Shown: piece after piece, positions 1-14,408 of the stretch
Layout of the letters: each line of letters opens with the position of its first letter
Position numbering within the stretch: the first letter of the stretch is position 1
Virus record (IMG/VR): IMGVR_UViG_3300020203_000404
Location: 1-64,000 of that record
Length of the DNA: 64,000 nucleotides
Reading direction: 5' to 3' (one strand)
Source of the DNA: a virus
Made by a program: the position numbers and the translations under genes
Notes under the pieces: generated by a model
The model's database searches: none
Told to the model about the DNA's origin: nothing
Seen by the model: only the letters and a program-made list of their open reading frames with translations

Positions 1-21
1 TCAACCGTCGGCTCAAAGTGA
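1..21 (+). CDS. 3' end of another hexapeptide-repeat gene (..STVGSK*), truncated by the window start
   Basis: tca acc gtc ggc tca aag tga is the same C-terminal cap as the downstream paralogs and is followed by the same promoter spacer. Confidence 0.8.
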   Translation, partial: STVGSK

Positions 22-28
22 TTTTTGC

Positions 29-56
29 TTGACAGACCGCGAGAATGATGTATCAT
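29..56 (+). promoter_or_regulatory. sigma70-like promoter TTGACA-N16-TATCAT, 6 nt upstream of ATG (leaderless). Copies at 406, 963, 1394, 2167, 5214, 5861, 6346, 12884
   Basis: Near-identical 41-bp spacer between tandem paralogs; the copies at 5214 and 6346 have a perfect TATAAT; no SD sequence between -10 and ATG. Confidence 0.8.
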
Positions 57-62
57 TAAAAC

Positions 63-398
63 ATGAAAACCATCACGCACACGAACCCGAACGGCAAGAC
101 CGTTCAAGTCAACGTCGGCGAGAACGTGACCATCGGCAAGAACGTGACCATCGCCAAGAACGTGACCATCGCCAAGAATTCGACTATCGGCGTCGGATCG
201 TACTGCGGCGTCGGATCGACCATCGGCGAGAACGTGACCATCGGCGAGAACGTGACCATCGCCAAGAACCCGTACATCAGCCGGGGTTCGACCGTCGGCG
301 ACGGCTCGTACATCGGCGAGGGTTCGCACATCGGCGAGAACGTGACCATCGACCGGGACGCGACCATCGCCCCCGGCTCAGCCGTCGGCTCAAAGTGA
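63..398 (+). CDS. left-handed beta-helix (hexapeptide repeat) protein, 111 aa
   Basis: Constant leader MKTITHTNPNGKTVQVNV, then uninterrupted [IV]-G-x-x-[VAS]-x repeats. Confidence 0.9.
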   Translation: MKTITHTNPNGKTVQVNVGENVTIGKNVTIAKNVTIAKNSTIGVGSYCGVGSTIGENVTIGENVTIAKNPYISRGSTVGDGSYIGEGSHIGENVTIDRDATIAPGSAVGSK

Positions 399-439
399 TT
401 TTTGCTTGACAGACCGCGAGAATGATGTATCATTAAAAC

Positions 440-955
440 ATGAAAACCATCACGCACACGAACCCGAACGGCAAGACCGTTCAAGTCAACGTCGGCGAGC
501 ACGTGACCATCGGCCCGCACGCGACAATCGGCGATGACTCGACCATCGGCCCGCACTCGACAATCGGCGAGCACGCGAACATCGGCGAGGACTCGTACAT
601 CGGCGAGAACGTGACCATCGACGAGAACGCGATCGTCGGCGACGGCTCGTACATCGGCCCGCACTCGACCATCGGCGAGAACGCGACCATCGGCAAGAAC
701 GCGATCGTCAGCAAGAACTCGTACATCGGTGACGGCTCGTACATCGGCAAGGGCTCGAACATCTGCAAGAACGTGACCATCGTCTCGCACTCGACCATCG
801 GCAAGAACGTGACCATCGGCTCGTACTCGACTATCGGCTCGTACTCGACCATCGGCCAGAACGCGATCATCGGCGAGAACTCGTACATCGGCTGGAACGT
901 GACCATCGACGAGAACGCGACCATCGCCCCCGGCTCAATCGTCGGCTCAAAGTGA
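440..955 (+). CDS. left-handed beta-helix protein, 171 aa
   Basis: Same leader, hexapeptide repeats and GSK cap; own promoter. Confidence 0.9.
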   Translation: MKTITHTNPNGKTVQVNVGEHVTIGPHATIGDDSTIGPHSTIGEHANIGEDSYIGENVTIDENAIVGDGSYIGPHSTIGENATIGKNAIVSKNSYIGDGSYIGKGSNICKNVTIVSHSTIGKNVTIGSYSTIGSYSTIGQNAIIGENSYIGWNVTIDENATIAPGSIVGSK

Positions 956-996
956 TTTTTGTTTGACAGACCGCGAGAATGATGTATCATTAAAAC

Positions 997-1386
997 ATGA
1001 AAACCATCACGCACACGAACCCGAACGGCAAGACCGTTCAAGTCAACGTCGGCGAGAACGTGACCATCGACAAGAACGTGACCATCGGCGAGAACGTGAC
1101 CATCGGCAAGCACGCGAACATCGGCAAGCACGCGAACATCGGCGAGGATTCGTACATCGACGAGCACGTGACAATCGGCGAGCACGCGACCATCGGCGAG
1201 CACGCGACCATCGGCGAGCACGCGACCATCGGCGAATACGTGCTCATCTACGAGAACGTGACCATCGGCTGGAACGTGACCATCGACGAGAACGCGAACA
1301 TCGGCTGGAACGTGACCATCGACGAGAACGCGATCATCGACGAGAACGCGATCATCGCCCCCTGCTCAACCGTCGGCTCAAAGTGA
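997..1386 (+). CDS. left-handed beta-helix protein, 129 aa
   Basis: Same leader, hexapeptide repeats and GSK cap; own promoter. Confidence 0.9.
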   Translation: MKTITHTNPNGKTVQVNVGENVTIDKNVTIGENVTIGKHANIGKHANIGEDSYIDEHVTIGEHATIGEHATIGEHATIGEYVLIYENVTIGWNVTIDENANIGWNVTIDENAIIDENAIIAPCSTVGSK

Positions 1387-1427
1387 TTTTTGCTTGACGG
1401 GCCGCGAGAATGATGTATCATTGAAGC

Positions 1428-2159
1428 ATGAAAACCATCACGCACACGAACCCGAACGGCAAGACCGTTCAAGTCAACGTCGGCGAGCACGTGACCATCG
1501 GCGAGCACGTGACCATCGGCGAGCACGCGACCATCGGCGAGGACTCGTACATCGGCTCGTACGCGACCATCGGCTCGTACGCGACCATCGGCGAGAACGT
1601 GACCATCGGCTCGTACTCGACCATCGGCGAGAACGTGACCATCGGCTCGTACTCGACCATCGGCGAGCACGCGACCATCGGCAAGAACGCGATCGTCAGC
1701 AAGAACTCGTACATCGGCCGGAGTTCGAACATCGGCGAGGACTCGTACATCGGCGAGTGCTCGTACATCGGCAGGAACGCGACCATCGGCAGGAACGCGA
1801 CCATCGGCCCGCACTCGACCATCGGCAGGAACGCGACCATCGGCGAATACGCGAACATCGTCGATGGTTCGCACGTCGGCTCGTACTCGACCATCGGCGA
1901 GAACGTGACCATCGGCGAGGACTCGTACATCGGCGAGAACGCGACCATCGGCAGGAACGCGATCATCGGCAAGAACGCGATCATCGGCAAGAACGCGATC
2001 ATCGGCAAGAACGCGATCATCGGCTCGTACTCGACCATCGGCGAGCACGTGACAATCGGCGAGAACGTGACCATCGGCTGGAACGTGACCATCGACGAGA
2101 ACGCGATCATCGACGAGAACGCGATCATCGCCCCCGGCTCAATCGTCGGCTCAAAGTGA
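1428..2159 (+). CDS. left-handed beta-helix protein, 243 aa
   Basis: Same leader, hexapeptide repeats and GSK cap; own promoter. Confidence 0.9.
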   Translation: MKTITHTNPNGKTVQVNVGEHVTIGEHVTIGEHATIGEDSYIGSYATIGSYATIGENVTIGSYSTIGENVTIGSYSTIGEHATIGKNAIVSKNSYIGRSSNIGEDSYIGECSYIGRNATIGRNATIGPHSTIGRNATIGEYANIVDGSHVGSYSTIGENVTIGEDSYIGENATIGRNAIIGKNAIIGKNAIIGKNAIIGSYSTIGEHVTIGENVTIGWNVTIDENAIIDENAIIAPGSIVGSK

Positions 2160-2200
2160 TTTTTGCTTGACAGACCGCGAGAATGATGTATCATTGAAAT

Positions 2201-2629
2201 ATGAGTACCATCACACATGTGAACCCGAACGGCGAAACCGTTCAAGTCAGCGTCGGCGAGAACGTGACCATCGGCGAGAACGTGACCATCGGCAAGAACG
2301 CGATCATCGGCAAGAACGCGATCATCGGCAAGAACGTGACCATCGGCTGGAACGTGACCATCGGCTGGAACGTGACCATCGGCGAGAACGCGATCGTCAG
2401 CAAGAACGCGATCGTCAGCAAGAACGCGAACATCGGCGAGAACGCGAACATCGGCTCGTACTCGATCATCTGCCCGAACGCGATCATCGGCCAGAACGCG
2501 ATCATCGGCGAGAACTCGTACATCGGCTGGAACGTGACCATCGGCTCGTACTCGACCATCGGCGAGAACGCGATCATCGGCTATGGCGTAACCATCGACG
2601 AGGGCTCGACCATCGGCCCAGACGCCTGA
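2201..2629 (+). CDS. left-handed beta-helix protein, 142 aa (array-terminal type, ends IGPDA)
   Basis: MSTITHVNP leader; followed by arm A of the hairpin element. Confidence 0.9.
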   Translation: MSTITHVNPNGETVQVSVGENVTIGENVTIGKNAIIGKNAIIGKNVTIGWNVTIGWNVTIGENAIVSKNAIVSKNANIGENANIGSYSIICPNAIIGQNAIIGENSYIGWNVTIGSYSTIGENAIIGYGVTIDEGSTIGPDA

Positions 2630-2836
2630 GGGGCGACGGGGCGGCCCACGGGCTCGCCCCTTGCACGCTAAAAAAACGTGCATAGCTTAGGGCTCTGGTC
2701 TTCGCCTAGATCCAAGGGACGCGATCCTGTGCCCCCTCTATTCTTTTTCAAGATTCTACTAGCCTTTCCTTGAAAATGAGGTAATCTAATGGTGTCCACA
2801 GTGGACATCCGAAACAGCAACAGAAAGCACAACATC

Positions 2837-3028
2837 ATGTCGAACAGTACCGAAGTCAAGCGTGGCCGTGGTCGTCCCAAGTCTTTCCCGAATGCCGAGA
2901 CGCGAATGGCGGGTTTCAACCTGCCGGTCGCTACGCTAGAGAAGATCGTCGCGGCGGCTGCCAAGCGTGGCACCAACCAGAACACCCTTCTGGATCGTGC
3001 GGTGAATGCTTACCTCCGCAAGAGCTGA
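2837..3028 (+). CDS. AT-hook plus ribbon-helix-helix DNA-binding protein
   Basis: KRGRGRPK AT-hook, then GFNLPVATLEKIVAAAAKRGTNQNTLLDRAVNAYL matching the CopG/Arc pattern. Confidence 0.7.
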   Translation: MSNSTEVKRGRGRPKSFPNAETRMAGFNLPVATLEKIVAAAAKRGTNQNTLLDRAVNAYLRKS

Positions 3029-3057
3029 GTCGCGGACGGGTCCGTGAGTACTGGAAA

Positions 3058-3092
3058 AGGCTAGGGAGAAATCCCTGGCCTCTTCCTTTTTC
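3058..3092 (+). terminator. probable intrinsic terminator
   Basis: aggctaggga-gaaa-tccctggcct hairpin followed by a pyrimidine/T tract. Confidence 0.55.
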
Positions 3093-3109
3093 TGGGGTAC
3101 TATTCTCAC

Positions 3110-3463
3110 ATGCAAGTCAAAGTCTACTTCAATCTACACAAGCGAACGTGGTCTATTCTGCACAAGACTCCGAAGGGGTGGCGGCTGTGGGGTCACTCGC
3201 CGCGTGTGACGCTGGCAGGCGTGACGTGGAAGGTGAGCGAAGCGGGCCGTCAGCGTGTTCTTCGGGAGCGTCGCAAGAACGTCCACGCCTTCGGCATCGG
3301 TATCCTGCTCGACAATGAGAACGCTCCCGAAGGGGAGTTTCTGCCGGTGAAGTACAATCCCTACGAATCGGGTTTCTTTTGCGTGAACGGTACGCCTGTA
3401 CACGCAAGCCGGTTTGCAGTGTTCACGCCCGAAAGACGTGTTTTTGCTTGCCTAAATCCCTGA
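3110..3463 (+). CDS. conserved phage hypothetical protein
   Basis: VYFNLHK...VSEAGRQRVLRERRKNVHAF motif, recalled as common in phages; TACTAT -10 lies 6 nt upstream. Confidence 0.75.
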   Translation: MQVKVYFNLHKRTWSILHKTPKGWRLWGHSPRVTLAGVTWKVSEAGRQRVLRERRKNVHAFGIGILLDNENAPEGEFLPVKYNPYESGFFCVNGTPVHASRFAVFTPERRVFACLNP

Positions 3464-3481
3464 GGAAGATATACTGAGATA

Positions 3482-3778
3482 ATGAAGTACAGAATCGTCA
3501 AGCACGACAAGCTCAACTGGGCCATTCAAGAGTACCAAGAAGGTGGGGGGGAAATCTCTCGCGGTCCCTACGCCGGTCAGGCGATGCAAGAGAAGTGGAA
3601 GCCCGCCAAGGCGTTCTACCCTTCGCTGCAACGTGCAGCCCTGAACTTGCTCGACATGGCAGCGGGTGATACACTGGAAGCGGGCGAGGCTCAGGGCATC
3701 TTGGATGCCCTCAGGATCGCGGAAACGAGAGTCTTGGAAACGTTACGGGCTATGACACCCGAAGAGGTCGCACGATGA
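3482..3778 (+). CDS. hypothetical protein
   Basis: ORF preceded by TTGCCT-N16-TATACT (3448-3475), leaderless. Confidence 0.75.
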   Translation: MKYRIVKHDKLNWAIQEYQEGGGEISRGPYAGQAMQEKWKPAKAFYPSLQRAALNLLDMAAGDTLEAGEAQGILDALRIAETRVLETLRAMTPEEVAR

Positions 3779-4026
3779 GGTATCGCATCAATTGGACGGA
3801 ATCGGTAGGCTATTCTATCTACGTTCAGGCTGACTCGAAAGAAGAGGCGTTGACGAAGTTCCACGAGGGTGGTTACGAGGCCGACATGTCGCGTGCGTTC
3901 GAGAGTTTCTGCGAAATGCAGGAAGACGCGGAGGCCGAGGAATGCGACGGCTGCAACGGCACCGGCACCACGGGCGGCGGCCCTCCCGGTTCGGCCAGTC
4001 CGTGTGACTGCTGCAACGGTGCGTAA
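3775..4026 (+). CDS. small protein with DnaJ-like CxxCxGxG zinc-finger motifs
   Basis: CDGCNGTG...CDCCNG; ATGA overlap with the upstream gene; paralog at 13468. Confidence 0.7.
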   Translation: MRYRINWTESVGYSIYVQADSKEEALTKFHEGGYEADMSRAFESFCEMQEDAEAEECDGCNGTGTTGGGPPGSASPCDCCNGA

Positions 4027-4156
4027 CATTCTCTTGACTGCGTGCCATTGTCGCTATATGATAATAGCACTATGGCACGCAAGAAGCACGATCTGCCCAA
4101 GGCTGTTCAGGACATAGCCGCAAAACCCGTTTCAAGGACCGCAAGAGGCAACAACA

Positions 4157-4357
4157 ATGAATGAGCGTGTTATCAATTTGCAATTCGACTCTGTCTGCGT
4201 CATCACAACTGAGCAATACGACGCTATCAAGCGTGATCTTGAAATACGTATAATGGTGGACAGTGCTCAGCCGGGGGACCATATCTTGGCACGGCTGTTA
4301 ATCAACGCGGAATATCGCTACCATGAAATCAAGATGCTAGAGAATGTCGTTGACTGA
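4157..4357 (+). CDS. hypothetical protein
   Basis: 66-aa ORF whose stop overlaps the next promoter. Confidence 0.55.
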   Translation: MNERVINLQFDSVCVITTEQYDAIKRDLEIRIMVDSAQPGDHILARLLINAEYRYHEIKMLENVVD

Positions 4358-4378
4358 TAGCATTTTATGCGATAGAAT
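4350..4378 (+). promoter_or_regulatory. promoter TTGACT-N17-TAGAAT; second copy at 4617-4645
   Basis: Near-identical direct repeat ttgactgatagcat(t/g)ttatgcgatagaataaa in front of ATGs at 4384 and 4654. Confidence 0.75.
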
Positions 4379-4383
4379 AAAGC

Positions 4384-4620
4384 ATGAAGAACACAATCGA
4401 AAACCAGTGGCGATGGATGGACAGGCTCAAAGCGGGCACGAAGATCGTCACCAAGGGAGATACTTGGATTCTTCCCAAGTGGAAGAATAATCACCTTGGC
4501 ATCAAGTACGCCGAAAGCGTCTTCATCAACGTCAGCACGGGAGACCTGAAACACTATTCTAGGCTCACAGACTTGGAAAAGCCGCCCCGCATTGAGGGCC
4601 ACAGTTCGGTTTTCATTTGA
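4384..4620 (+). CDS. hypothetical protein
   Basis: Leaderless ORF bracketed by the duplicated promoter. Confidence 0.7.
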   Translation: MKNTIENQWRWMDRLKAGTKIVTKGDTWILPKWKNNHLGIKYAESVFINVSTGDLKHYSRLTDLEKPPRIEGHSSVFI

Positions 4621-4726
4621 CTGATAGCATGTTATGCGATAGAATAAAACATCATGAACACACAAACGACCGAAGTCTACAAGGATTGCTTGGGTTGCAA
4701 GTACTGTAATGATGTATCATCGAAAT

Positions 4727-5206
4727 ATGAGTACCATCACGCACACGAACCCGAACGGCAAGACCGTTCAAGTCAACGTCGGCGAGAACGTGACCATCGG
4801 CGAATACGTGCTCATCTGCGAGAACGCGACCATCGGCTCGCACTCGACCATCGGCTCGCACTCGACCATCGGCAGGAACGCGACCATCGGCTGGAACGCA
4901 ACCATCGGCGAGGACTCGTACATCGGCTCATACTCGATCATCGGCGAGAACGCAACCATCGGCTCGTACTCGTACATCGGCAAGTACGCGATCATCGGCA
5001 AGAACGCGACCATCGGCGAGAACGCGACCATCGGCGAGAACGCGACCATCGGCAAGAACGTGACCATCGGCTCGTACTCGACCGTCGGCAAGAACGCGAT
5101 CATCGGCGAGAACGCGAACATCGGCGAGAACTCGTACATCGTCCGGGACGCGATCGTCGGCCAGGACGCGACCATCGCCCACGGCTCAATCGTCGGCCTA
5201 AAGTGA
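4727..5206 (+). CDS. left-handed beta-helix protein, 159 aa
   Basis: Start placed at MSTITH by homology to the paralogs. Confidence 0.85.
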   Translation: MSTITHTNPNGKTVQVNVGENVTIGEYVLICENATIGSHSTIGSHSTIGRNATIGWNATIGEDSYIGSYSIIGENATIGSYSYIGKYAIIGKNATIGENATIGENATIGKNVTIGSYSTVGKNAIIGENANIGENSYIVRDAIVGQDATIAHGSIVGLK

Positions 5207-5247
5207 TTTTTGCTTGACGAGCCGCGAGAATAATGTATAATTGAAGC

Positions 5248-5853
5248 ATGAAAACCATCACGCACACGAACCCGAACGGCAAGACCGTTCAAGTCAGCGT
5301 CGGCGAGAACGTGACCATCGGCAAGAACGCGAACATCAGCTGGAACGTGACCATCGGCTCGTACTCGACCATCGGCAAGAACGCGAACATCAGCTGGAAC
5401 GTGACCATCGGCTCGCACTCGACCATCGGCGAGCACGCGACCATCGGCAAGAACGCGATCGTCAGCAAGAACTCGTACATCGGCCGGAGTTCGAACATCG
5501 GTGACGGCTCGTACATCGGCAAGGGCTCGAACATCGGCAAGAACGTGACCATCTGCAAGAACGTGACCATCGTCTCGCACTCGACCATCGGCAAGAACGT
5601 GACCATCGGCTCGTACTCGACTATCGGCGAGCACGCGAACATCAGCGAGAACGCGATCATCGACTATGGCGTAACCATCGGCTCGTACGTGACCATCGAC
5701 TTGTACTCGTACATCGGCTCGCACTCGACCATCAGCTGGAACGTGACCATCAGCTGGAACGTGACCATCGGCGAGAACGTGACCATCGGCGAGAACGTGA
5801 CCATCGACCGGGACGCGACCATCGCCCCCGGCTCAATCGTCGGCTCAAAGTGA
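5248..5853 (+). CDS. left-handed beta-helix protein, 201 aa
   Basis: Hexapeptide repeats, own promoter. Confidence 0.9.
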   Translation: MKTITHTNPNGKTVQVSVGENVTIGKNANISWNVTIGSYSTIGKNANISWNVTIGSHSTIGEHATIGKNAIVSKNSYIGRSSNIGDGSYIGKGSNIGKNVTICKNVTIVSHSTIGKNVTIGSYSTIGEHANISENAIIDYGVTIGSYVTIDLYSYIGSHSTISWNVTISWNVTIGENVTIGENVTIDRDATIAPGSIVGSK

Positions 5854-5894
5854 TTTTTGCTTGACAGACCGCGAGAATGATGTATCATTAAAAC

Positions 5895-6338
5895 ATGAAA
5901 ACCATCACGCACACGAACCCGAACGGCAAGACCGTTCAAGTCAGCGTCGGCGAGAACGTGACCATCGGCGAGAACGCGATCATCGGCGAGAACGTGACCA
6001 TCGGCGAGGACTCGTACATCGGCGAGAACGCGATCATCGGCCCGCACTCGACCATCGGCTCGCACTTGACTATCGGCAGGAACGCGACCATCGGCGAATA
6101 CGCGAACATCGTCGATGGTTCGCACGTCGGCTCGTACTCGACCATCGGCGAGAACGTGACCATCTACGAGAACGCGATCATCCGCGAGCACGCGACCATC
6201 GGCAAGAACGCGATCATCCGCGAGCACGCGAGCATCGGCAAGAACGCGACCATCGGCAAGAACTCGTACATCGTCCGGGACGCGATCGTCGGCCAGGACG
6301 CGACCATCGCCCCCGGCTCAATCGTCTGCTCAAAGTGA
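5895..6338 (+). CDS. left-handed beta-helix protein, 147 aa
   Basis: Hexapeptide repeats, own promoter. Confidence 0.9.
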   Translation: MKTITHTNPNGKTVQVSVGENVTIGENAIIGENVTIGEDSYIGENAIIGPHSTIGSHLTIGRNATIGEYANIVDGSHVGSYSTIGENVTIYENAIIREHATIGKNAIIREHASIGKNATIGKNSYIVRDAIVGQDATIAPGSIVCSK

Positions 6339-6379
6339 TTTTTGCTTGACAGACCGCGAGAATAATGTATAATTGAAGC

Positions 6380-6715
6380 ATGAAAACAATCAAATACACG
6401 AACCCGAACGGCAAGACCGTTCTGGTCAGCGTCGGCAAGAACGCGATCATCGGCAAGAACGCGATCATCGGCGAGAACGTGACCATCGGCGAATACGTGC
6501 TCATCTGCGAGAACGTGACCATCGGCTCGAACGCAACCATCGGCTATGGCGTAACCATCTGCGAGAACGCGACCATCGCCGACGGCTCAACCGTCGGCGA
6601 GCACGCGACCATCGGCGAGCACGCGACCATCGGTAAGGACTCGTACATCGGCGAGCACGTGACCATCGGCGTCGGTTCGAACATCGGCGAGGGCTCGACC
6701 ATCGGCTTCGAGTGA
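6380..6715 (+). CDS. left-handed beta-helix protein, 111 aa (ends IGFE)
   Basis: Hexapeptide repeats, own promoter. Confidence 0.9.
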   Translation: MKTIKYTNPNGKTVLVSVGKNAIIGKNAIIGENVTIGEYVLICENVTIGSNATIGYGVTICENATIADGSTVGEHATIGEHATIGKDSYIGEHVTIGVGSNIGEGSTIGFE

Positions 6716-6922
6716 CGCACGAGCTTGCCCTGTAGAGCCACACGCGGGTCTCGCGGTCTGTCAAGCCTTATTCGCAAGCATGGGGTCGATGGGGGGTCGT
6801 TTTAGACGGCCCTCTTTTTCTATTTCAAGCGTACTAGAAACGCATTTAAAATAATTCAGCGGTTCTGTCAAAACACTTACAGTACAAAGCTCGGCGATCT
6901 CTGGGATTTTCTTACACTTACT

Positions 6923-7010
6923 TACTGTCGAGCTAAAAATAACCGTGGCCGCCAGAACGGCAGCCGGAAAGATTTTCCTGCCAGAACGGCAGCCGGAAAG
7001 ATTTTCCTGC
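6923..7010. repeat. ~88-bp non-coding block with an internal 29-bp tandem duplication; second direct copy at 14555-14642
   Basis: gccagaacggcagccggaaagattttcct x2, containing the GGAAAnnTTTTCC palindrome. Confidence 0.9.
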
Positions 7011-7177
7011 TTGCCCCGTGGAGCCCTAGGGCGTTGCGTGCTGCTAGCACGCTCGCCCTAGATAGCTAAGCTAGGCACGTTTTTTTAGCGTGCAAGGGGC
7101 GAGCCCGTAGGCCGCCCCGCAGCCTTGTGCGTTACATGCCGGACGCCGCGACAATCACGACTAGGCCGGTTGCCACA
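7010..7177 (-). repeat. inverted remnant of the intergenic element plus the internally deleted 3' end of gene 9560-9802
   Basis: Reverse complement matches 9722-9870 with a ~36-nt internal deletion. Confidence 0.85.
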
Positions 7178-7290
7178 GCTTTTTCAAGTTACTATTCGCC
7201 CTAGTAAGATAGCACACTATCGTTAGAATGCAAGCTGAAAAAAAAAGATTATTCACCTCGTCTTCCTGTCATTCCGTGGTATCATAGGGC

Positions 7291-7923
7291 ATGAATAACG
7301 CGACAACGTCCAGCCTAATGAGTATCGTAGGGGGGCTTTCCAAGCCCTCCAAGATGCCGGGATTCGGCTACGGGCTTTCGGCTCTCGATTGCAAGGTTGG
7401 CCGCCTACTCCGCAAGGTAGAAGGTTCAACGTGCGGATCGTGCTACGCTTTGAAAGGTAGGTATTCCTTTCCGAATGTGAAAAAAGCACACGCCCGTCGT
7501 CTGGAAAGCCTTTCCAATCCGCATTGGGAGGCTGCCATGACGGAACTTATTTCCCGCAAGGCGAAAAAGGTTCCGTTCTTCCGCTGGCACGATTCTGGCG
7601 ATCTCCAGAGCGTGGAACACCTTTCCATGCTCGTTAGGATCGCGAAAAACCTTCCGCAAGTGTCATTCTGGATTCCAACACGCGAAAACGTGATGGTGAA
7701 ACAATTTCTGAATCAGGGTAACACGTTCCCGGACAATTTTACCGTTCGCGTGTCGGCTCCTATGATCGGTCGCACCCCGGAAAAGATTGCCGGAACGGTT
7801 GGCTCCAGCGTGGAAGATTCTTCCGCTTTTCAATGTCCCTCTCCCAAGCAAGGCAATTCTTGCCAGGAATGTCGTTCCTGCTGGAATGGAAAGGTCGAAA
7901 ACGTTTCCTACTCGAAACACTGA
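7291..7923 (+). CDS. GP88-like Cys-rich phage protein
   Basis: SKPSKMPG, C..CxxCYA.KG.Y, FRWHDSGDL and CxxCRxCW motifs recalled as typical of the gene product 88 family. Confidence 0.7.
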   Translation: MNNATTSSLMSIVGGLSKPSKMPGFGYGLSALDCKVGRLLRKVEGSTCGSCYALKGRYSFPNVKKAHARRLESLSNPHWEAAMTELISRKAKKVPFFRWHDSGDLQSVEHLSMLVRIAKNLPQVSFWIPTRENVMVKQFLNQGNTFPDNFTVRVSAPMIGRTPEKIAGTVGSSVEDSSAFQCPSPKQGNSCQECRSCWNGKVENVSYSKH

Positions 7924-8024
7924 TGAGGAATGTTCTTCCTACCTAATCGGAATCGTGCTATTTTTTCTCGGTGTCGCTCTACTGGGGCTCATCCTGAAAA
8001 ACTTTCGATCGTGAGCTAGCGGGC

Positions 8025-8203
8025 CGATACGCTAGCCTTCTCTGTACGGGCTGGAAACGGCCCGTCCCTGCATGTTAGACGCGAGCCTAAACCCTAAGCT
8101 ACGCGGGCGGGCGGAGAATCCGCCCTAGGCCCGCGTGGGGCCTCACGGGGCAGGCTCGACTTTTTGTTTTTTCCTCTTGCTTTTTCGAGCCTATAGGGTA
8201 TCA
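8025..8203 (+). repeat. modular intergenic element (arm B + bulged GC hairpin core + T-tract + promoter)
   Basis: Core ACGCGGGCGGGCGGAGAATCCGCCCTAGGCCCGCGT at 8101, 8760, 9451, 9872, 11670, 12071, 12612, 13321, 13874. Confidence 0.95.
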
Positions 8204-8264
8204 TATCAATGTCCAAAGCAATTCGCCCAGGACACCTTTCGACACCTCAACAGGACAAGGTATC

Positions 8265-8648
8265 ATGAATATCCCGACCGGTATTGAAGTCTCCCGCACG
8301 GAAGCCGCAACGCTCATTCGCAAGGCTCGTGGCATGGTTTCCGTGGTAGTTCGCAAGCGTTCGGACGGTTCGCTCCGTCGGATGAACGGTTTCGCCGCGT
8401 GCAATCTCAGCGACGCCGAACGGGCAGCAAACACGAACGGCACGGGAGCCGCGTTCGATCCGCTCGCCCATGATCTCATCCCATTCTACGAAATGGTTTC
8501 CCAGACGGTCAACGGTTTCCGCGTCGTGAACGGTAAGACGGTCGCCAGCAAGATCCGCCGCACGATCGGAAAGCAATTCCGGAACGTTGCGATCGAGGGT
8601 ATCCTGTCAATCCGCACGGCTGGAAAAACCTACACGGTCGCGGGCTGA
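8265..8648 (+). CDS. WYL-like / Sm-SH3 beta-barrel phage protein (DUF2693-like)
   Basis: VSVVVRKRSDGSLRRM...IPFYE...FRNV...I pattern. Confidence 0.5.
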   Translation: MNIPTGIEVSRTEAATLIRKARGMVSVVVRKRSDGSLRRMNGFAACNLSDAERAANTNGTGAAFDPLAHDLIPFYEMVSQTVNGFRVVNGKTVASKIRRTIGKQFRNVAIEGILSIRTAGKTYTVAG

Positions 8649-8684
8649 AAAGACTTCCGAGCGGCGACTAGGATTCGCCGCTCG

Positions 8685-8868
8685 GATACGCTAGCCTTCT
8701 CTGTACGGGCCTGAAACGGCCCGTCCCTGCATGCTAGACGCGAGCCTAAACCCTAAGCTACGCGGGCGGGCGGAGAATCCGCCCTAAGCCCGCGTGTGGC
8801 TTCACAAGGCAGGCTCGACTTTTTGTTTTTTCCTCTTGCTTTTTCGCACCGCTAGGGTATCCTAAGAC
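8685..8868 (+). repeat. intergenic element, arm B type, with promoter TTGCTT-N16-TATCCT
   Basis: Near-identical to 8025-8203. Confidence 0.95.
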
Positions 8869-9387
8869 ATGAATACCATCACGCACACGAACCCGAACGG
8901 CAAGACCGTTCTGGTCAGCGTCGGCGAGAACGTGACCGTCTGCAAGAACGTGACCATCGGCTCGTACTCGACCATCGGCTCGTACTCGACCATCGGCGAG
9001 AACGTGACCATCGGCCAGAACGCGATCATCGGCGAGAACGCGACCATCGGCTGGAACGTGACCATCGCCAAGAACCCGTACATCGGCAAGAACGCGAACA
9101 TCGGTGACGGCTCGACCATCGGCAAGAACGTGACCATCTCCAAGAACGTGACCATCGGCTCGTACTCGTACATCGGCAAGAACGCGACCATCGGCGAGAA
9201 CGCGAGCATCGGCAAGAACGCGAGCATCGGCAAGAACGCGACCATCGACCGGGACGCGACCATCGACCGGAACACGACCATCGGCAAGAACGCGAACATC
9301 GGCGAGAACGCGACCATCGACCGGGACACGACCATCGGCGAGAACGCGACCATCGACCGGGACACGACCATCGGCCCAGACGCCTGA
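8869..9387 (+). CDS. left-handed beta-helix protein, 172 aa (single-gene cassette)
   Basis: MNTITH leader and IGPDA end. Confidence 0.9.
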   Translation: MNTITHTNPNGKTVLVSVGENVTVCKNVTIGSYSTIGSYSTIGENVTIGQNAIIGENATIGWNVTIAKNPYIGKNANIGDGSTIGKNVTISKNVTIGSYSYIGKNATIGENASIGKNASIGKNATIDRDATIDRNTTIGKNANIGENATIDRDTTIGENATIDRDTTIGPDA

Positions 9388-9559
9388 GGGGCGACGGGGC
9401 GGCCCACGGGCTCGCCTCTTGCACGCTAAAAAAACGTGCCTAGCTTAGCTACGCGGGCGGGCGGAGAATCCGCCCTAGGTCCGCGTGGGGCTCTACAGGG
9501 CAGGCTCGACTTTTTGCTTTTTCTTCTTGCTTTTTCGAGCCTATAGGGTATCCTAAGAT
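9388..9559 (+). repeat. intergenic element, arm A type. Also at 9812-9981, 11606-11778, 12548-12720, 13257-13370; partial at 2630-2690 and 10531-10562
   Basis: ggggcgg(g)cc(t/c)acgggctcgcc(c/t)cttgcacgctaaaaaaacgtgc(c/a)tagcttagct + core + promoter. Confidence 0.95.
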
Positions 9560-9802
9560 ATGAAAACGAACGATCTCAAAAAGGGTACTCGCGTCCAGCT
9601 TCGCAACGGTTGGCATGCGACGATTGCCGACAACGCACGCGGAAACACGCGGATGGCCACGGTTGAGGGTCACTACACCGAAACGGGCTCAGTCTACTCT
9701 CACGATATCGTGCGGGCTCAGGTGGCAACCGGCCTAGTCACGATTGAGCACACCCCCGCTCAGGTGAAGCTCCGCAAGAATGTCGCGGCGTCCGGCGTGT
9801 AA
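9560..9802 (+). CDS. hypothetical phage protein
   Basis: Leaderless ORF exactly filling the space between two elements. Confidence 0.8.
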   Translation: MKTNDLKKGTRVQLRNGWHATIADNARGNTRMATVEGHYTETGSVYSHDIVRAQVATGLVTIEHTPAQVKLRKNVAASGV

Positions 9803-9981
9803 CGTACAAGACTACGGGGCGGGCCTACGGGCTCGCCTCTTGCACGCTAAAAAAACGTGCATAGCTTAGCTACGCGGGCGGGCGGAGAATCCGCCCTAGG
9901 TCCGCGTGGGGCTCCACGGGGCGAGCCTAGTTTTTTGTTTTTTCCTCTTGCTTTTTCGAGCCTATAGAGTATCATTCTGGC

Positions 9982-10518
9982 ATGAAAGCAATTCGCCAAA
10001 CGGCCCTTGTGGCCAAACTGAACGATATCAAGGGGGCGACGTTCGCGACCCTCATCACGGAAACGAATGCCCGTCTCAAGAAGACCGGCAATACTTTCGG
10101 GGACGTTCGCAAGGTATCGCGTGTCAACGTTACGCTAGGCTTCCAATACGAAGCAGCCGTCAACCGTCAACGCACGCGGGAAGGCTCGGAAGCTAACTTT
10201 GAAGCGGCTCCGCGTCAATGGGGCGAACGTATCGCCGGAACATTCCTCGTGCAGCACAAGGACCGGACATACCTTGAGTGCAAGGTGGAGCGTAGTATTT
10301 CGCACGTCTATCTCGATTCGACCGGGAAGGAATTGACCGACGAACAAGTCGCCCCTTTCCTTCCGGCAAAGAGTTCCAGCCGTCAGGATACCGAGAAGGA
10401 AATTCTCGTTCGCGACTACGCTCTCGATTCCATCCGTGGAATCTCTTTCAAGGGCGACAGTTTCCTCATCATGCAGGATAATCCTTCGCCGATCGCGGCT
10501 GAATTGCTGGCGGTCTAA
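9982..10518 (+). CDS. hypothetical phage protein
   Basis: Leaderless ORF after TTGCTT-N16-TATCAT (9948-9975). Confidence 0.8.
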   Translation: MKAIRQTALVAKLNDIKGATFATLITETNARLKKTGNTFGDVRKVSRVNVTLGFQYEAAVNRQRTREGSEANFEAAPRQWGERIAGTFLVQHKDRTYLECKVERSISHVYLDSTGKELTDEQVAPFLPAKSSSRQDTEKEILVRDYALDSIRGISFKGDSFLIMQDNPSPIAAELLAV

Positions 10519-10722
10519 TCGCTCACGAGGCTACGGGGCGGGCTCACGGGCTCGCCCCTTGCGTTCTCGTTCGCACGATAATGCGTTCATAGTACGCTTG
10601 AAATAGAAAAAGGCTTGACGAGCCGAGAGCGTATTAGAGCCTAAGGATATTCTCGCGAAATTCCCATTGCCTTTATCCGTCAACGTGGTACTATTCCAGC
10701 GTCCAAACGAAAGGGGCATACC

Positions 10723-11349
10723 ATGCGATTCAAATTCACCGCGAAAAAAGATTATGAAACGGGCGAAATCGGTTGGCAGGATTCGCGTATCCGCTCCCAC
10801 GTATACGGCCCGCTATCCGGTTCGATCGGTCTCGCCCACGATTGTCTTGAACACGCTGCGTTTGATAGCGTCGCGGATGAGATTGAAGCCCATGGGGCCA
10901 TGTACTGGATACGTTACGAAGGCGGATACAATATCGACATGGAAAGCTTTTCCAATGAGTGGACCAGCCTCGTGCAAGGTCTCGCAGAGGAGCCTTTTTT
11001 TCCTACTCCGCCGAAAACTCGCCCCCTGGAAGATTCGATCGAGGAAGATATTTCCACGATCATCGCAAACGGACGTGCCTTGTGCCTACGGGAGTTCCAT
11101 GAGGATTATGAGCGGACCGAGATTGAAAAGGTGGCAAACGTATTCCGGGCCTATTTCCGTCGCGGATACCGTAAGGCTACACGACGCTACAAGGGTCTAG
11201 CGGCGTGCAAGGTTGCGGGCTTATTCTCGGCCTTGGTGAGAGCCTTCGAAGGTCAACGAATCGAGTACAGGGGGCAGGAAATCACGGTCACGGTAAACTT
11301 GAAAACGCAACGGGTTACGGTAGAGGAAAACATTCCGGCAGAATGGTAG
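10723..11349 (+). CDS. hypothetical protein (HDxxEH..DExxAxG; possible metal site)
   Basis: 208-aa ORF with SD-like AGGGG upstream. Confidence 0.7.
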   Translation: MRFKFTAKKDYETGEIGWQDSRIRSHVYGPLSGSIGLAHDCLEHAAFDSVADEIEAHGAMYWIRYEGGYNIDMESFSNEWTSLVQGLAEEPFFPTPPKTRPLEDSIEEDISTIIANGRALCLREFHEDYERTEIEKVANVFRAYFRRGYRKATRRYKGLAACKVAGLFSALVRAFEGQRIEYRGQEITVTVNLKTQRVTVEENIPAEW

Positions 11350-11392
11350 AATATTCTCCTTGCTTTTTCGAGCCTATAGGGTATCCTAAGGC

Positions 11393-11605
11393 ATGGAAAC
11401 GCAATTCAGTGACGACATGAACACGATCCGTGCGGACGACATGGACACGATCCGTGCGGACGAGATGGAAGAATATTCGTTCATCGCAAGCGAGGAACGT
11501 CGATACAAGGAAGAAAAGGCCGAATTCCACGGCGAGCTCGAAAGCCCGGAAGATATTGCCGAGTACGAGTCATGGCTGGATGGCAATGCTCTGGAATCGG
11601 TCTAG
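11393..11605 (+). CDS. very acidic small protein with an internal 8-aa tandem repeat
   Basis: About 23 D/E against 6 K/R in 70 aa; DDMNTIRA-DDMDTIRA; own promoter at 11360. Confidence 0.75.
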   Translation: METQFSDDMNTIRADDMDTIRADEMEEYSFIASEERRYKEEKAEFHGELESPEDIAEYESWLDGNALESV

Positions 11606-11778
11606 GGGGTGACGGGGCGGGCCTACGGGCTCGCCCCTTGCACGCTAAAAAAACGTGCCTAGCTTAGCTACGCGGGCGGGCGAAGAATCCGCCCTAGGCA
11701 CGCGTGGGGCTCCACGGGGCAAGCTCGACTTTTTTGCTTTTCCTCTTGCTTTTTCGAGCCTATAGGGTATCCTAAGAC

Positions 11779-12006
11779 ATGGAAACGATGAATCTTCAAA
11801 GGAACGACTACAATCTCGCCGGTCTGATCGCCTCGGACTACCATTTGTTCGGCGAGCGGAACCGCTATATTCTCGCTGCGGTTCACACGCGGTTCGAAGA
11901 GGTTACTTGGATGGTATTCGACGCTGAACAAGCGGATGAGATTCTGGGGACGCCCAAGATCATCCGCCAAGATCGCACGCCGGAACTGGCAGTGAAGGGC
12001 CTCTAG
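11779..12006 (+). CDS. hypothetical protein
   Basis: Leaderless cassette ORF. Confidence 0.75.
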   Translation: METMNLQRNDYNLAGLIASDYHLFGERNRYILAAVHTRFEEVTWMVFDAEQADEILGTPKIIRQDRTPELAVKGL

Positions 12007-12007
12007 T

Positions 12008-12175
12008 AGGCTGCCCAAGGGCCGGAAACGGCCCTTCTGGGCCTTCCTTTTTTTTGTGCCTAGCTTAGCTACGCGGGCGGGCGGAGAATCCGCCCTAGGC
12101 CCGCGTGGGGCTCTACAAGGCAAGCCTAGTTTTTGCTTTTTTCTCTTGCTTTGTTTGTAGCAAGGGGTATCCTAA
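12008..12175 (+). repeat. intergenic element, arm C type (terminator-like); second copy at 13811-13982
   Basis: ggctgcccaagggccggaaacggcccttctgggccttcc-T8, then the core. Confidence 0.9.
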
Positions 12176-12190
12176 ACAACAAGGAGACTT

Positions 12191-12547
12191 ATGTATTTCA
12201 AGGAAATCGTAGGACATGTATTGTTAGAAATCTCGTTGAATGACAGAGAAATTATCCTCAAGACCGACAAGGCAACGGCTCGTCTTGAGGCGGTTGGTGA
12301 CTGCTGTTCGCAAGGCTGGATTGACGACCTTGCCGTTTCGGGCACGCTGCCATCCAAGATTGTCGGTATTGAGGACATGTGCCAGTCTTTCAACCTTGCC
12401 GATGACGATAAGAGGTTTGACGAAGGTGACATTGTTGTGGCATACGGTGCCAAGATCGTGACCGAAAATGGTCCGATCACCTTCAATGTCTGGAACAATA
12501 GCAATGGCTATTATGGTTCTGTGTTGTGTTTCTCGGCATCGTACTGA
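12191..12547 (+). CDS. conserved phage hypothetical protein (DCCS...SNGYY motif)
   Basis: AAGGAG SD; motif recalled from phage proteins. Confidence 0.75.
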   Translation: MYFKEIVGHVLLEISLNDREIILKTDKATARLEAVGDCCSQGWIDDLAVSGTLPSKIVGIEDMCQSFNLADDDKRFDEGDIVVAYGAKIVTENGPITFNVWNNSNGYYGSVLCFSASY

Positions 12548-12720
12548 GGGGCGACGGGGCGGGCCTGCGGGCTCGCCTCTAGCACGCTAAAAAAACGTGC
12601 CTAGCTTAGCTACGCGGGCGGGCGGAGAATCCGCCCTAGGCACGCGTGGGGCTCTACAGGGCAGGCTCGACTTTTTGTTTTTTCCTCTTGCTTTTTCGCA
12701 CCGCTAGGGTATCCTAAGAC

Positions 12721-12876
12721 ATGAATACCATCACGCACACGAACCCGAACGGCAAGACCGTTCTGGTCAGCGTCGGCGAGAACGTGACCATCGGCTCGTA
12801 CTCGACCATCGGCGAGAACGTGACCATCGGCAAGAACGTGACCATCACCCCCGGCTCAATCGTCGGCTCAAAGTGA
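12721..12876 (+). CDS. minimal left-handed beta-helix protein, 51 aa (not in the ORF track)
   Basis: Hand translation: MNTITHTNPNGKTVLVSVGENVTIGSYSTIGENVTIGKNVTITPGSIVGSK*. Confidence 0.85.
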   Translation: MNTITHTNPNGKTVLVSVGENVTIGSYSTIGENVTIGKNVTITPGSIVGSK

Positions 12877-12917
12877 TTTTTGCTTGACAGACCGCGAGAA
12901 TGATGTATCATTGAAAT

Positions 12918-13256
12918 ATGAGTACCATCACACATGTGAACCCGGACGGAAAGACCGTTCTGGTCAACGTCGGCTCGAACGTAACCATCGGCTATGGCGT
13001 AACCATCTGCGAGAACGCGATCATCGGCTGGAACGTGACCATCGGCGAATACGCGAACATCGGCGAGAACTCGTACATCGGCTGGAACGCGACCATCGGC
13101 GAGAACGTGACCATCGGCTCGTGCTCGACTATCGGCTCGTACTCGACCATCGGCCAGAACGCGATCATCGGCGAGAACTCGTACATCGGCTGGAACGCGA
13201 CCATCGGCGAGAACGTGACCATCGACCGGGACACGACCATCGGCCCAGACGCTTGA
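12918..13256 (+). CDS. left-handed beta-helix protein, 112 aa (ends IGPDA)
   Basis: Hexapeptide repeats, own promoter. Confidence 0.9.
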   Translation: MSTITHVNPDGKTVLVNVGSNVTIGYGVTICENAIIGWNVTIGEYANIGENSYIGWNATIGENVTIGSCSTIGSYSTIGQNAIIGENSYIGWNATIGENVTIDRDTTIGPDA

Positions 13257-13428
13257 GGGGCGACGGGGCGGGCCTGCGGGCTCGCCTCTAGCACGCTAAA
13301 AAAACGTGCCTAGCTTAGCTACGCGGGCGGGCGGAGAATCCGCCCTAGGCCCGCGTGGGGCCTCACAGGCGATTGTAACGCTAGTGTAAAACGGTTTGAC
13401 TCTAGGCTTTTTCGTGGTATACTCAATC

Positions 13429-13809
13429 ATGGAAAAGACGATCGAAGACACCCGAAGAGGTAGCACGATGAGGTATCGCATCAATTGGACGGAATCGGTA
13501 GGCTATTGTGCCTACGTTCAGGCTGACTCGAAAGAAGAGGCGTTGACGAAGTTCCACGAGGGTGGTTACGATGCCTCGCTCGATGGTTTCTGCGAAATGC
13601 ATGACGACGCGGAGGCCGAGGAAGATCCTGATAAGGAATGCGACGGCTGCAACGGCACCGGCACCACTGGCGGCGGCCCTCCCGGTTCGGCCCTCCTGGT
13701 GGAAAACGACAAGCCTGCCGAATGAGCGGACATGCGTCACGAATGCGAAACGTGGCTTGGAAGAATATTCGACATCGAGCTTTGCGACCTATTCGAGCGT
13801 AGCCCATAG
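13429..13809 (+). pseudogene. chimeric gene: paralog of 3775-4026 fused to the 3' half of a 15254-15508 paralog, with TGA at 13723-13725
   Basis: NDKPAE*ADMRHECETWLG aligns to HDKPAEWVDMRHECETWLG; promoter TTGACT-N16-TATACT at 13396. Confidence 0.7.
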
Positions 13810-13982
13810 CGGGCTGCCCAAGGGCCGGAAACGGCCCTTCTGGGCCTTCCTTTTTTTTGTGCCTAGCTTAGCTACGCGGGCGGGCGGAGAATCCGCCCTA
13901 GGCCCGCGTGGGGCTCCACGGGGCAAGCTCGACTTTTTTGCTTTTCCTCTTGCTTTTTCTTTTTCAAGCTATATAGTAAAGC

Positions 13983-14408
13983 ATGAAATCACTACTCGAA
14001 AAAGCCATCCGCGTAGCATGCGAATCGCATGCGGGCCAAGTGGATAAGGGTGGGTTACCCTATATCCTACATCCACTTGCGGTTATGTTGAGTCTTCCAT
14101 CGTCGGACGTGAAAGGTCGCATCGTCGCCGTACTCCATGATGTTGTGGAGGACACAAGTACTACACTTGAAAAGCTCGCTGAGTGGCTGCCCTTCGATCT
14201 TCTTGAAGGCGTCGATGCCATGTCAAAGCGTCAAGGCGAGACTAACCGTGCCTATTGGATTCGCTGTAAGGCCAACGAAATCGCGGCACGGGTCAAGGTC
14301 GCTGACATGCTACATAATTCGAGCCCCGAGAGGCTAGCCTGTCTGAGCTACGCGGAGCAAGAATATCTTTCCAAGAAATATGGAGAGGCTCTTGTCTTTT
14401 TCAAGTAG
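13983..14408 (+). CDS. HD-domain protein, RelA/SpoT (p)ppGpp hydrolase-like small alarmone hydrolase
   Basis: HAGQVDKGGLPYILHP, AVLHDVVEDT and VKVADMLHN motifs. Confidence 0.85.
   Translation: MKSLLEKAIRVACESHAGQVDKGGLPYILHPLAVMLSLPSSDVKGRIVAVLHDVVEDTSTTLEKLAEWLPFDLLEGVDAMSKRQGETNRAYWIRCKANEIAARVKVADMLHNSSPERLACLSYAEQEYLSKKYGEALVFFK

Follow-up and report, generated by a model that had tools for sequence, protein, structure and literature searches.

Arrays of minimal, predicted left-handed β-helix genes with variable copy and coil number in an uncultured microbial-mat phage

Why does a phage carry some two dozen versions of one small hexapeptide-repeat gene, most of them behind their own promoter? 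We analysed a stretch, referred to as the window, that spans the opening 64 kb of an IMG/VR record of 151,810 bp from an uncultured microbial-mat phage. The record contains 24 complete paralogs and one split by its ends (at least 25), and the family takes up 6.7% of the genome. Exact paralog order and copy number depend on a metagenome assembly from short reads, which is broken within one copy. The window accounts for 12 of the complete genes; a further 11 are encoded on the minus strand between 133.7 and 140.4 kb, and the last lies at 151.4 kb. A first-pass annotation of the window had described 12 complete and one partial paralogs of 51–243 aa in clusters of at least six, four, one and two genes. 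All 12 starts are confirmed and the clustering is correct (the six being five complete genes plus the partial), with bases 1–21 forming the 3′ end of the 13th copy; that inventory stands for the window, but the family extends well past it.

All window copies are on the plus strand. Array 1 begins with the cap-encoding end of the partial paralog (1–21), which is cut by the record start and whose promoter and leader occupy the record's last 72 bases. Next come genes for proteins of 111 aa (15 units; 63–398), 171 aa (25 units; 440–955), 129 aa (18 units; 997–1386) and 243 aa (37 units, the longest; 1428–2159), and the array ends with a 142-aa paralog with a GPDA cap (2201–2629). Array 2 comprises paralogs of 159 aa (4727–5206), 201 aa (5248–5853), 147 aa (5895–6338) and 111 aa (6380–6715), the last ending in GFE. 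A solitary 172-aa paralog with a GPDA cap is located at 8869–9387, and the final pair consists of the shortest member (51 aa, five units; 12721–12876) and a 112-aa GPDA-capped protein (12918–13256).

Each gene is composed of a leader, 5–37 hexapeptide units and a short cap. The leader is constant, as first described, but spans 19 rather than 18 residues, and the supposedly constant cap in fact falls into three classes that track position in the array. The GPDA cap always belongs to an array's final gene and is fused to a GC-rich hairpin module, a candidate terminator, at 2630–2700, 9388–9460 and 13257–13330 (plus strand). Within a cap class, lengths step by 6 aa as claimed (6n+3 for GSK-type ends, 6n+4 for GPDA). 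Six paralogs match the Pfam Hexapep family PF00132 (E 4.7e-10 to 2.2e-75; 39–246 bits against a cut-off of 27), and a six-residue period runs through 479 units, with Ile or Val at 99% of the buried aliphatic sites and Ala, Val or Ser at 98% of a small buried site four positions later. An alignment-based AlphaFold model of the 171-aa paralog is a left-handed, three-sided β-helix (pLDDT 94.9) in which the leader forms a β-hairpin; in Foldseek this model superimposes on LpxD (2iu8_A) with a TM score of 0.88 and an rmsd of 2.4 Å. A single-sequence model fitted right-handed helices and was set aside for the alignment-based one. The leader, the uninterrupted units and a tail of 2–5 residues account for every residue. 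The model and this complete accounting agree with the proposal that these are left-handed β-helices lacking enzyme loops or extra domains.

Promoter elements of two types lie upstream of the copies, bearing out the proposal that each gene is self-promoted. The first (TTGACA-N16-TATCAT, followed by 6 nt and the ATG) is found on the plus strand at 29–56 and recurs at 406–433, 963–990, 1394–1421, 2167–2194, 5214–5241, 5861–5888, 6346–6373 and 12884–12911. The second (TTGCTT-N16-TATCCT, 5 nt, ATG) precedes the solitary 8869 paralog at 8834–8861 (plus strand), and it also stands ahead of the 12721 paralog and of unrelated small genes at 9560, 11393 and 11779; the genes at 9982 and 13983 have variants of its −10. 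Across the genome a near-consensus sigma-70 promoter fronts 21 paralogs, the broken one included; the window exceptions are the 8869 and 12721 genes, which use the second type, and the 4727 gene opening array 2, with a degenerate −35 element. A consensus scan of positions 1–16 kb returned 26 promoter-like sites, compared with 8.5 ± 3.0 in shuffled sequence.

The −10 element ends only 6 nt before the ATG, implying a leaderless mRNA. In Deinococcus-Thermus, a −10 motif 6–7 bp ahead of the open reading frame yields leaderless mRNA (PMC12340547). By this spacing (5–6 nt), host sigma-70 RNA polymerase would initiate at the A of the ATG or one base off, and each paralog would be translated as the 5′-terminal cistron of its own message, which would explain why every copy needs its own promoter. 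Phage sigma-factor genes are present at 77.9 and 116.5 kb, and their products may take over later in infection. From the promoter sequences we infer early, strong expression of the paralogs, which would lie in an early, cassette-built region of the genome. In keeping with such a setting, a collinear relative (G002) has the same kind of cassette, with a −10 next to the ATG, ahead of unrelated small genes.

The first-pass annotation had also proposed that the repertoire expands and contracts, and held that invariant arrays in related genomes would count against it. A relative (G016) about 95–98% identical to this phage over 48–151 kb has one and zero copies at loci where this phage has four and seven. 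One contig (L058) has three copies at array 1 (compared with at least seven) and none at array 2 (compared with four); on another (L067), 151.7 kb is followed immediately by a copy resembling the 5895 paralog. Genes resembling the 6380 paralog encode 111, 99 or 87 aa with differing caps, and other assemblies add 30 distinct complete paralogs. Copy number, order and coil number thus vary among natural variants that are otherwise 93–99% identical; the arrays are not invariant, and the earlier proposal holds on this point. The family occurs in microbial-mat, freshwater and hypersaline-lake metagenomes sampled in several studies. It is absent from all 15 more distant relatives (15/15), so this type of phage can do without it.

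The layout of the arrays suggests how this variation arises. Adjacent genes share a junction block of about 130 bp (cap, 41-bp promoter spacer and leader) with almost the same sequence in each copy, and each coil is encoded by an 18-bp unit; unequal or in-register homologous recombination could therefore add, delete, shuffle and resize genes. Because two of the arrays have opposite orientations, recombination could also invert the intervening segment, and two contigs from one assembly (L051 and L063) carry the reciprocal junctions expected of an inversion between arrays. Unequal recombination is the likely driver of the variation. No reverse transcriptase (RVT_1) match was found anywhere in the genome, while control genomes were positive, so the locus is not a diversity-generating retroelement (DGR).

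The units vary in the pattern expected of a β-helix, in agreement with the claim that inward positions are conserved and outward ones variable. The Ile/Val site has an entropy of 0.53 bits and exposed sites 1.9–2.7 bits, and the small buried site admits only Ala, Val or Ser. At the nucleotide level, unit positions 13–15 (the Ile codon) are nearly invariant and positions 1, 2, 4, 7, 8 and 11 are variable. When the 183 distinct units are joined in a minimum spanning tree, its branches contain 204 nonsynonymous and 33 synonymous changes (ratio per site, about 1.95). This modest nonsynonymous excess suggests protein-level selection that keeps buried residues and lets exposed ones vary. Relaxed constraint at exposed sites combined with strong codon bias, third positions being almost all G or C, could also generate a nonsynonymous excess. 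Intact frames are weak evidence by themselves, since the repeats can be read through in all six frames.

We favor, with a probability of roughly two in five, the reading that these proteins are non-enzymatic β-helix rods, encoded by a gene family with fast turnover and produced from leaderless early cassettes, whose surfaces bind or titrate host factors. The rods would be abundant in the cytoplasm early in infection, and their diversified surfaces would most likely be directed at anti-phage defence components or at host takeover. The locus would then act as a genomic accordion in the arms race between phage and host. An early cytoplasmic binder or decoy function is our best guess and the least certain part of this reading; none of the paralogs shows homology to any known anti-defence protein. 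A more specific proposal, that in natural populations minimal β-helix cassettes are shuffled, resized and amplified by recombination as a phage-borne repertoire that generates new binding surfaces against host defences, appears rather unlikely.

The alternative that survives best is neutral or selfish expansion of a promoter-repeat cassette prone to recombination and slippage, each copy having a generic dosage role or none and the surface variation reflecting relaxed constraint. The near-identical junctions and 18-bp units would ease unequal exchange, and the commonest duplicate units are indeed adjacent identical ones (lags 1–2). Close relatives survive with zero or one copy, the nonsynonymous to synonymous ratio is only about 2, and defective copies occur, one truncated to 42 aa and one with its stop codon lost. 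Neutral expansion fits poorly with the strict retention of buried positions over the 479 units or with an intact near-consensus promoter at nearly all copies, and the share of the packaged genome that the family occupies is a real cost, borne by a family that persists across samples of several studies. On balance we regard this explanation as possible but unlikely.

The composition of the exposed surface raises the question of whether the rods bind ice. Thr occupies an exposed site in 59% of units and Asn the site two residues earlier in 53%, and flat faces rich in these residues might shield infected cells in freezing mats. The β-helical antifreeze proteins of the spruce budworm and Tenebrio come from tandemly arranged gene families; their isoforms vary by entire coils and have Thr-rich surfaces, so there is a precedent for such a family with changing coil number. 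The mat, freshwater and hypersaline-lake sources of the present family might include cold sites, one contig with a name beginning LV_Brine presumably deriving from Antarctic brine. The surfaces, however, show no face-specific regularity, since identity at position 4 is 0.388 at the one-turn lag of 3, which does not stand out from 0.376 at lag 2 and 0.351 at lag 4. Charged residues are common at the corners (pI 4.05–9.37; net charge −12 to +4), the genes sit in an early context, and the paralogs have no signal peptide. They also lack the one-face Thr ladder, Cys ladder and secretion signal of the insect proteins and have a different repeat length. A cryoprotective role is improbable.

A scaffold role is about as improbable. 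The constant N-terminal hairpin and C-terminal cap could stack paralogs head to tail into mixed filaments with a cytoskeletal or compartment function, an arrangement consistent with constant ends around variable middles, with a leader modelled as a β-hairpin cap and, as a lead only, with feature-search neighbours automatically named polymer-forming cytoskeletal protein (scores 0.87–0.89). A homogenized, recombining junction block explains the constant ends equally well, however, and the three cap classes follow array position rather than function.

The predicted fold and hexapeptide period are shared with LpxA, LpxD, GlmU and the γ-class carbonic anhydrases, but the flanking domains, loops and catalytic or metal-binding residues of those proteins are missing here. 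All NCBIfam enzyme models examined (LpxA, LpxD, GlmU, DapD and others) scored below their cut-offs, the best being an LpxD subfamily at 189.6 bits against 207 and the rest lying much lower, and the paralogs have no flanking domain or loop with catalytic residues as in the β-helix acyltransferases. The γ-class carbonic anhydrase model scored 62 bits, where its cut-off is 250, and its three fixed metal-binding His residues are not found; His in the 479 units falls almost exclusively at variable position 2 (48 cases), with 10 cases at position 4 and one at position 1, and occurs once in the leader. Nor do the paralogs resemble the pentapeptide-repeat DNA mimics Qnr and MfpA, as their period is six and their surface is not uniformly acidic.

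The earlier suggestion that the paralogs poison host trimeric β-helix acyltransferases as dominant-negative subunits, here widened to mimics that co-assemble with or cap LpxA, LpxD, GlmU or carboxysome CcmM/CcmN, is very improbable. The best sequence and fold matches of the paralogs are the β-helix domains of LpxD, LpxA and GlmU, accompanied by a weak, sub-threshold match to the non-enzymatic β-helix protein CcmN, but these amount to generic repeat similarity beneath every family cut-off. Conserved targets would not require 25 variants, and variation in length and on all three faces speaks against binding at a single conserved host surface. Least probable of all is that alleles of just one or two genes, from different strains, were falsely chained via their shared ends: the record does break within a paralog, and public unitigs fragment in the arrays with alternative joints, but assemblies made independently from different samples with different pipelines (L053, L063, L057, G016) keep relative paralog order with insertions and deletions, unit order is distinct in each copy, and depth inside paralogs is near flank depth (a rough estimate from a few places).

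To say that no such phage system had been described is an overstatement, since PHROG 5353 already catalogues phage hexapeptide proteins of unknown function; its HMM matches four of our paralogs (E 7.3e-06 to 5.2e-62), and the present family is an extreme form of these. Like our paralogs, members of PHROG 5353 (and of 2154 and 5070; e.g. ORF0197 of Aeromonas phage phiAS5) are predicted Hexapep β-helices without known enzyme features, encoded among small hypothetical genes. They differ in being longer and without the 19-aa leader, in occurring singly or in at most two or three places per GenBank phage record, and in having neither a promoter per gene nor population-level variation in copy number and length. 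Two phages (G017, 58 kb, and G018) encode PHROG 5353-matching proteins with nearly the same leader (MKTIKHTN.DG...) followed by hexapeptide coils, but in single copy, with core Leu in place of Ile and with a C-terminal globular domain of 60–70 aa that has no Pfam match. YdcK-like β-solenoid phage proteins (PF18836) are likewise rod-like left-handed β-helices, although six paralogs gave no match to this family at E ≤ 0.1. A feature search with the paralogs also returns neighbouring YdcK-like clusters.

In their variation the arrays resemble viral genomic accordions, as tandem copy number differs among near-identical genomes. Amplification of phage counter-defence genes is documented for T4 tifA (PMC9391042) and in the SegB-driven case of T6 (PMC13096335). 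Poxvirus K3L and these phage examples share tandem amplification, close variants that differ in copy number and subsequent divergence; they differ in having been observed under laboratory selection, and they involve small copy numbers and an identified host antagonist. The arrays described here are natural, internally repetitive and far larger, their 25 copies greatly exceeding known phage accordions, which counts against the accordion reading.

If the rods are indeed counter-defence or takeover factors, this phage would be evolving, at an unusual scale, through gene accordions that arise in nature, and the family would provide a compact, tunable β-helix scaffold whose natural variants map surface tolerance. 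The logic of one promoter for one leaderless cistron is testable, including as the reason why duplicates carry their own promoters. The recombination-diversified repertoire, if real, would be a DNA-recombination counterpart both of DGRs and of the repertoires of variable repeat proteins known from eukaryotic parasites. We found no papers on the function of non-enzymatic β-helix rods in phages, yet such rods recur in PHROG 5353 and among YdcK-like proteins, and an answer for one family would open up a class that has been neglected.

The hexapeptide-repeat genes of G000, the 151,810-bp IMG/VR virus record whose bases 1–64000 are the window (96% complete by CheckV), form a real and unusually large family, of a kind that is already catalogued in phages but whose function is unsolved there. 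All 12 complete paralogs reported by the first-pass annotation are present in the window, starting at 63, 440, 997, 1428, 2201, 4727, 5248, 5895, 6380, 8869, 12721 and 12918, with the lengths of 51–243 aa that it had stated, and bases 1–21 are the tail of a thirteenth copy. The family is nevertheless bigger than could be seen from the window alone, with 11 paralogs on the minus strand at 133.7–140.4 kb and another at 151.4 kb. At its end the record has a promoter followed by the 12 initial codons of a paralog, and it begins with a cap, so the assembly break falls inside a paralog. Together the 23 full-length copies make up 6.7% of the genome (10.2 kb), excluding a truncated 42-aa copy (137694–137822) that runs from the cap into the region upstream of the next gene. 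This stump recurs in two other contigs, marking an array boundary. In the paralog at 139597–140067 the stop codon has changed from TGA to TGT, so that the frame continues for 9 codons into the next promoter; the stop is intact in a metagenome variant.

Each paralog is composed of a leader of 19 aa (MKTITHTNPNGKTVQVNVG or a close variant), 5–37 uninterrupted hexapeptide units and 2–5 residues beyond the last unit. Genes with an ...IAPGSIVGSK-type cap have lengths of 6n+3 aa, and those with a ...TIGPDA cap 6n+4. Matches to Pfam Hexapep (PF00132) are weakest for the 51-aa copy (E 4.7e-10) and reach 2.2e-75. A model based on an alignment of the paralogs and distant homologues (pLDDT 94.9) places the leader as a β-hairpin cap and resembles Chlamydia LpxD (TM 0.88, rmsd 2.4 Å). 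The single-sequence AlphaFold model of the gene at 440–952 is also a confident β-solenoid (pLDDT 87.5), but right-handed helices superpose on it at 2–3 Å and left-handed β-helix enzymes at ~12 Å rmsd; given these fits its hand is probably wrong, and it was set aside. For repeat proteins this is a caution, in that a single-sequence prediction can be confident yet wrong-handed; here the alignment restored the left-handed fold.

The absence of enzyme loops and extra domains, anticipated by the first-pass annotation, is borne out: the proteins contain leader, coils, cap and nothing more. Every NCBIfam enzyme model scores under its cut-off against the paralogs, and histidines lie almost only at variable unit positions, plus once in the leader. 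Together these features indicate β-helix rods rather than acyltransferases or carbonic anhydrases. Paralog pI values range from 4.05 to 9.37, and this charge range rules out a DNA-mimic reading.

The 479 units of the full-length copies fall into 159 peptide and 183 DNA types. Inward-facing residues are kept and outward-facing ones vary, as had been noted: position 5 (buried aliphatic) is Ile or Val in 99% of units with an entropy of 0.53 bits, position 3 (small, buried) is Ala, Val or Ser in 98% (1.73 bits), and the varied, exposed positions 1, 2 and 4 have entropies of 1.9–2.7 bits. In the unit DNA the Ile codon is almost invariant and nearly every third codon position is G or C; the variable sites are first and second positions. 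A minimum spanning tree of the distinct units contains 204 nonsynonymous and 33 synonymous changes (per-site ratio ~1.95), and three pairs of equal-length alleles in other assemblies differ by 27 nonsynonymous and 5 synonymous changes. Judged from these codon comparisons, the substitution pattern shows that the rods are a family under fold-preserving selection. Diversifying selection on surface residues would also be compatible with it, although the nonsynonymous excess is modest and may owe something to codon bias or block exchange. The genome lacks a reverse transcriptase, the mark of a diversity-generating retroelement. N-x-S/T sequons are threefold denser in the paralogs (173 in total, 5.1 per 100 aa) than in generic hexapeptide proteins (1.6), and no GT41 N-glycosyltransferase was found.

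Within the arrays, the intergenic spacer is 41 bp and near-identical in every copy, reading TGA, a T-run, TTGACA, 16 nt, TATCAT or TATAAT, 6 nt and ATG. The promoter element of this spacer, P1, has 21 copies in the genome: 20 before paralogs, with the one cut by the end of the record counted among them, and one before a 144-aa secreted-looking gene after one array. The second type, P2 (TTGCTT, 16–17 nt, TATCCT, 5 nt, ATG), precedes three paralogs and several unrelated small genes at 9.5–14 kb. A consensus scan of 1–16 kb finds 26 promoter-like sites, compared with 8.5 ± 3.0 in shuffles, and no other IMG/VR record carries the P1 pattern. The proposal that every gene has its own promoter describes most paralogs but not the one at 135559–136056 in the minus-strand array region, which has none. 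A tRNA-Val(TAC) gene ends 5 nt ahead of its start codon (junction region 136056–136135), and from this layout upstream tRNA processing could yield a nearly leaderless mRNA. Just upstream of this tRNA are tRNA-Thr(TGT) and an unusual tRNA whose anticodon has 4 bases. The tRNA-Val/paralog arrangement is found again in three metagenome contigs (e.g. L007 2429–2502).

No Shine-Dalgarno sequence precedes the paralogs and the -10 hexamer lies 5–6 nt from the ATG, which places the probable start of transcription at or beside the A of the start codon. Leaderless genes with a -10 motif 6–7 bp ahead of the ORF are experimentally documented in Deinococcus-Thermus (PMC12340547). Strong late genes of G000 have Shine-Dalgarno sequences, and sigma-factor-like proteins are encoded at 77.9 and 116.5 kb. 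The promoter layout and these genes would fit early cassettes read by the host polymerase, with later transcription directed by the phage. Arrays have no hairpin between their genes, and efficient translation would therefore be limited to the cistron at the 5' end of each nested transcript; this may be why each duplicate carries a promoter.

The setting of the paralogs is a generic early-cassette context. The 8025–14000 region consists entirely of cassettes, each with a GC-rich hairpin module (eight copies), a P2 promoter and a predicted leaderless small gene, and in two public runs 11775 is joined to 12658, with the loss of one cassette. The hairpin module at array ends lacks a U-tract and its folding z-score is not significant, so it is not called a terminator. 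G+C content is 0.54–0.59 over 1–16000 and about 0.45 in the rest of the genome. A second small early gene, unrelated to the paralogs and beginning MRYRINWTESVGY, is present at 3775–4026 and 13429–13725, with diverged C-terminal halves. A 43-nt direct repeat with a hairpin (GGCCGCCAGAACGGCAGCC) occurs at 6936–7007 and 14566–14638, 7.6 kb apart, and contigs in three runs join the two sites.

The terminase of the phage is about 25% identical to the closest cultured-phage homologue, and no GenBank phage has near-identical DNA. The family is absent from 185,579 species genomes, and a search of 5.8 billion protein sequences returned only generic hexapeptide enzymes (top identity 34%), apart from one 98-aa ENA protein with a similar leader. 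PHROG 5353, a family of phage hexapeptide proteins catalogued without a function, matches the paralogs (E to 5.2e-62), but the YdcK-like family PF18836 does not. In cultured phages PHROG 5353 is represented by single genes or by at most 2–3 places per record, whereas G000 has large arrays; our literature search found no paper on such families. Two more distant phages (G017 and G018) have nearly the same leader on single genes with Leu-core coils and an additional C-terminal domain. Single-copy leader-sharing genes of two other phages (L041 5001–5456 and L050 5672–6220) have Leu-core hexapeptides (e.g. DGVKLG, NDVWLG) and a terminal Cys/Trp-containing domain of 60–70 aa with no Pfam match.

Near-identical phages differ heavily in paralog copy number, order and length, so the arrays are not invariant among related genomes. 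None of 15 IMG/VR records with a 63–98% identical major capsid protein has the family; one of these, G002, is complete and collinear, with about 75% DNA identity over 19–130 kb, the same G+C trend, and cassettes in which the -10 likewise adjoins the ATG but the small genes are unrelated. A leader-based scan identified G016, a 107-kb record about 95–98% identical to G000 over 48–151 kb, which carries a single paralog and a 206-aa unrelated gene at the locus of four G000 paralogs, and three or four unrelated genes at the locus of seven; its contig stops inside its next copy. Scanning metagenomes from several projects gave 33 loci with 43 complete paralogs of 39–189 aa, 30 of them distinct from any in G000. 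In L058 (flanks 91–100% identical) array 1 (in G000 the array whose last gene starts at 2201) has three copies and 4620 is joined directly to 6773, without array 2 (whose first gene starts at 4727); in L067, 151.7 kb is followed directly by a 5895-like copy; and L053 preserves the order 138600, 138223 ... 137864 and the truncated copy, with two additional genes between. The 6380-like genes encode 111, 99 and 87 aa with differing caps. Two contigs of one ENA assembly (L051 and L063, ORBV01) have reciprocal junctions relative to 4.4–7.6 kb and 133–140.4 kb of G000, consistent with an inversion, by paralog recombination, of the segment between oppositely oriented arrays. The public runs that contain the phage are microbial-mat metagenomes from several studies, where it is present only as short unitigs; none of those listed is an RNA dataset. 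A joint skipping array 2 is a minority form in two runs, borderline with 30-base sides.

We propose that the block of cap, spacer and leader (~130 bp) and the 18-bp units promote unequal, in-register homologous recombination, and that the rods are expressed early, strongly and from leaderless mRNAs. The rods would be abundant cytoplasmic binders or decoys in phage–host conflict, the reading that we favour for their role and the least certain part of the scheme. To the whole explanation, taken jointly with the accordion behaviour described below, we assign a probability of about 0.4. A mostly neutral expansion driven by recombination is unlikely. Ice-binding rods would account for faces rich in Thr and Asn, an antifreeze-like multigene pattern and sample sites that are possibly cold, but the absence of lag-3 (one-turn) periodicity indicates that no face is specialised, and without a regular face this function is improbable. 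We give similarly low weight to a self-assembling scaffold, and still less to dominant-negative poisoning of host β-helix trimers. An assembly artefact of chained alleles is the least probable, since the paralogs keep their relative order in independent assemblies.

Tandem gene amplification of the accordion type is known in viruses, as with K3L of poxviruses. The locus encoding the proposed binders may behave in the same way, as a genomic accordion like those of the T4 and T6 counter-defence genes (PMC9391042, PMC13096335).
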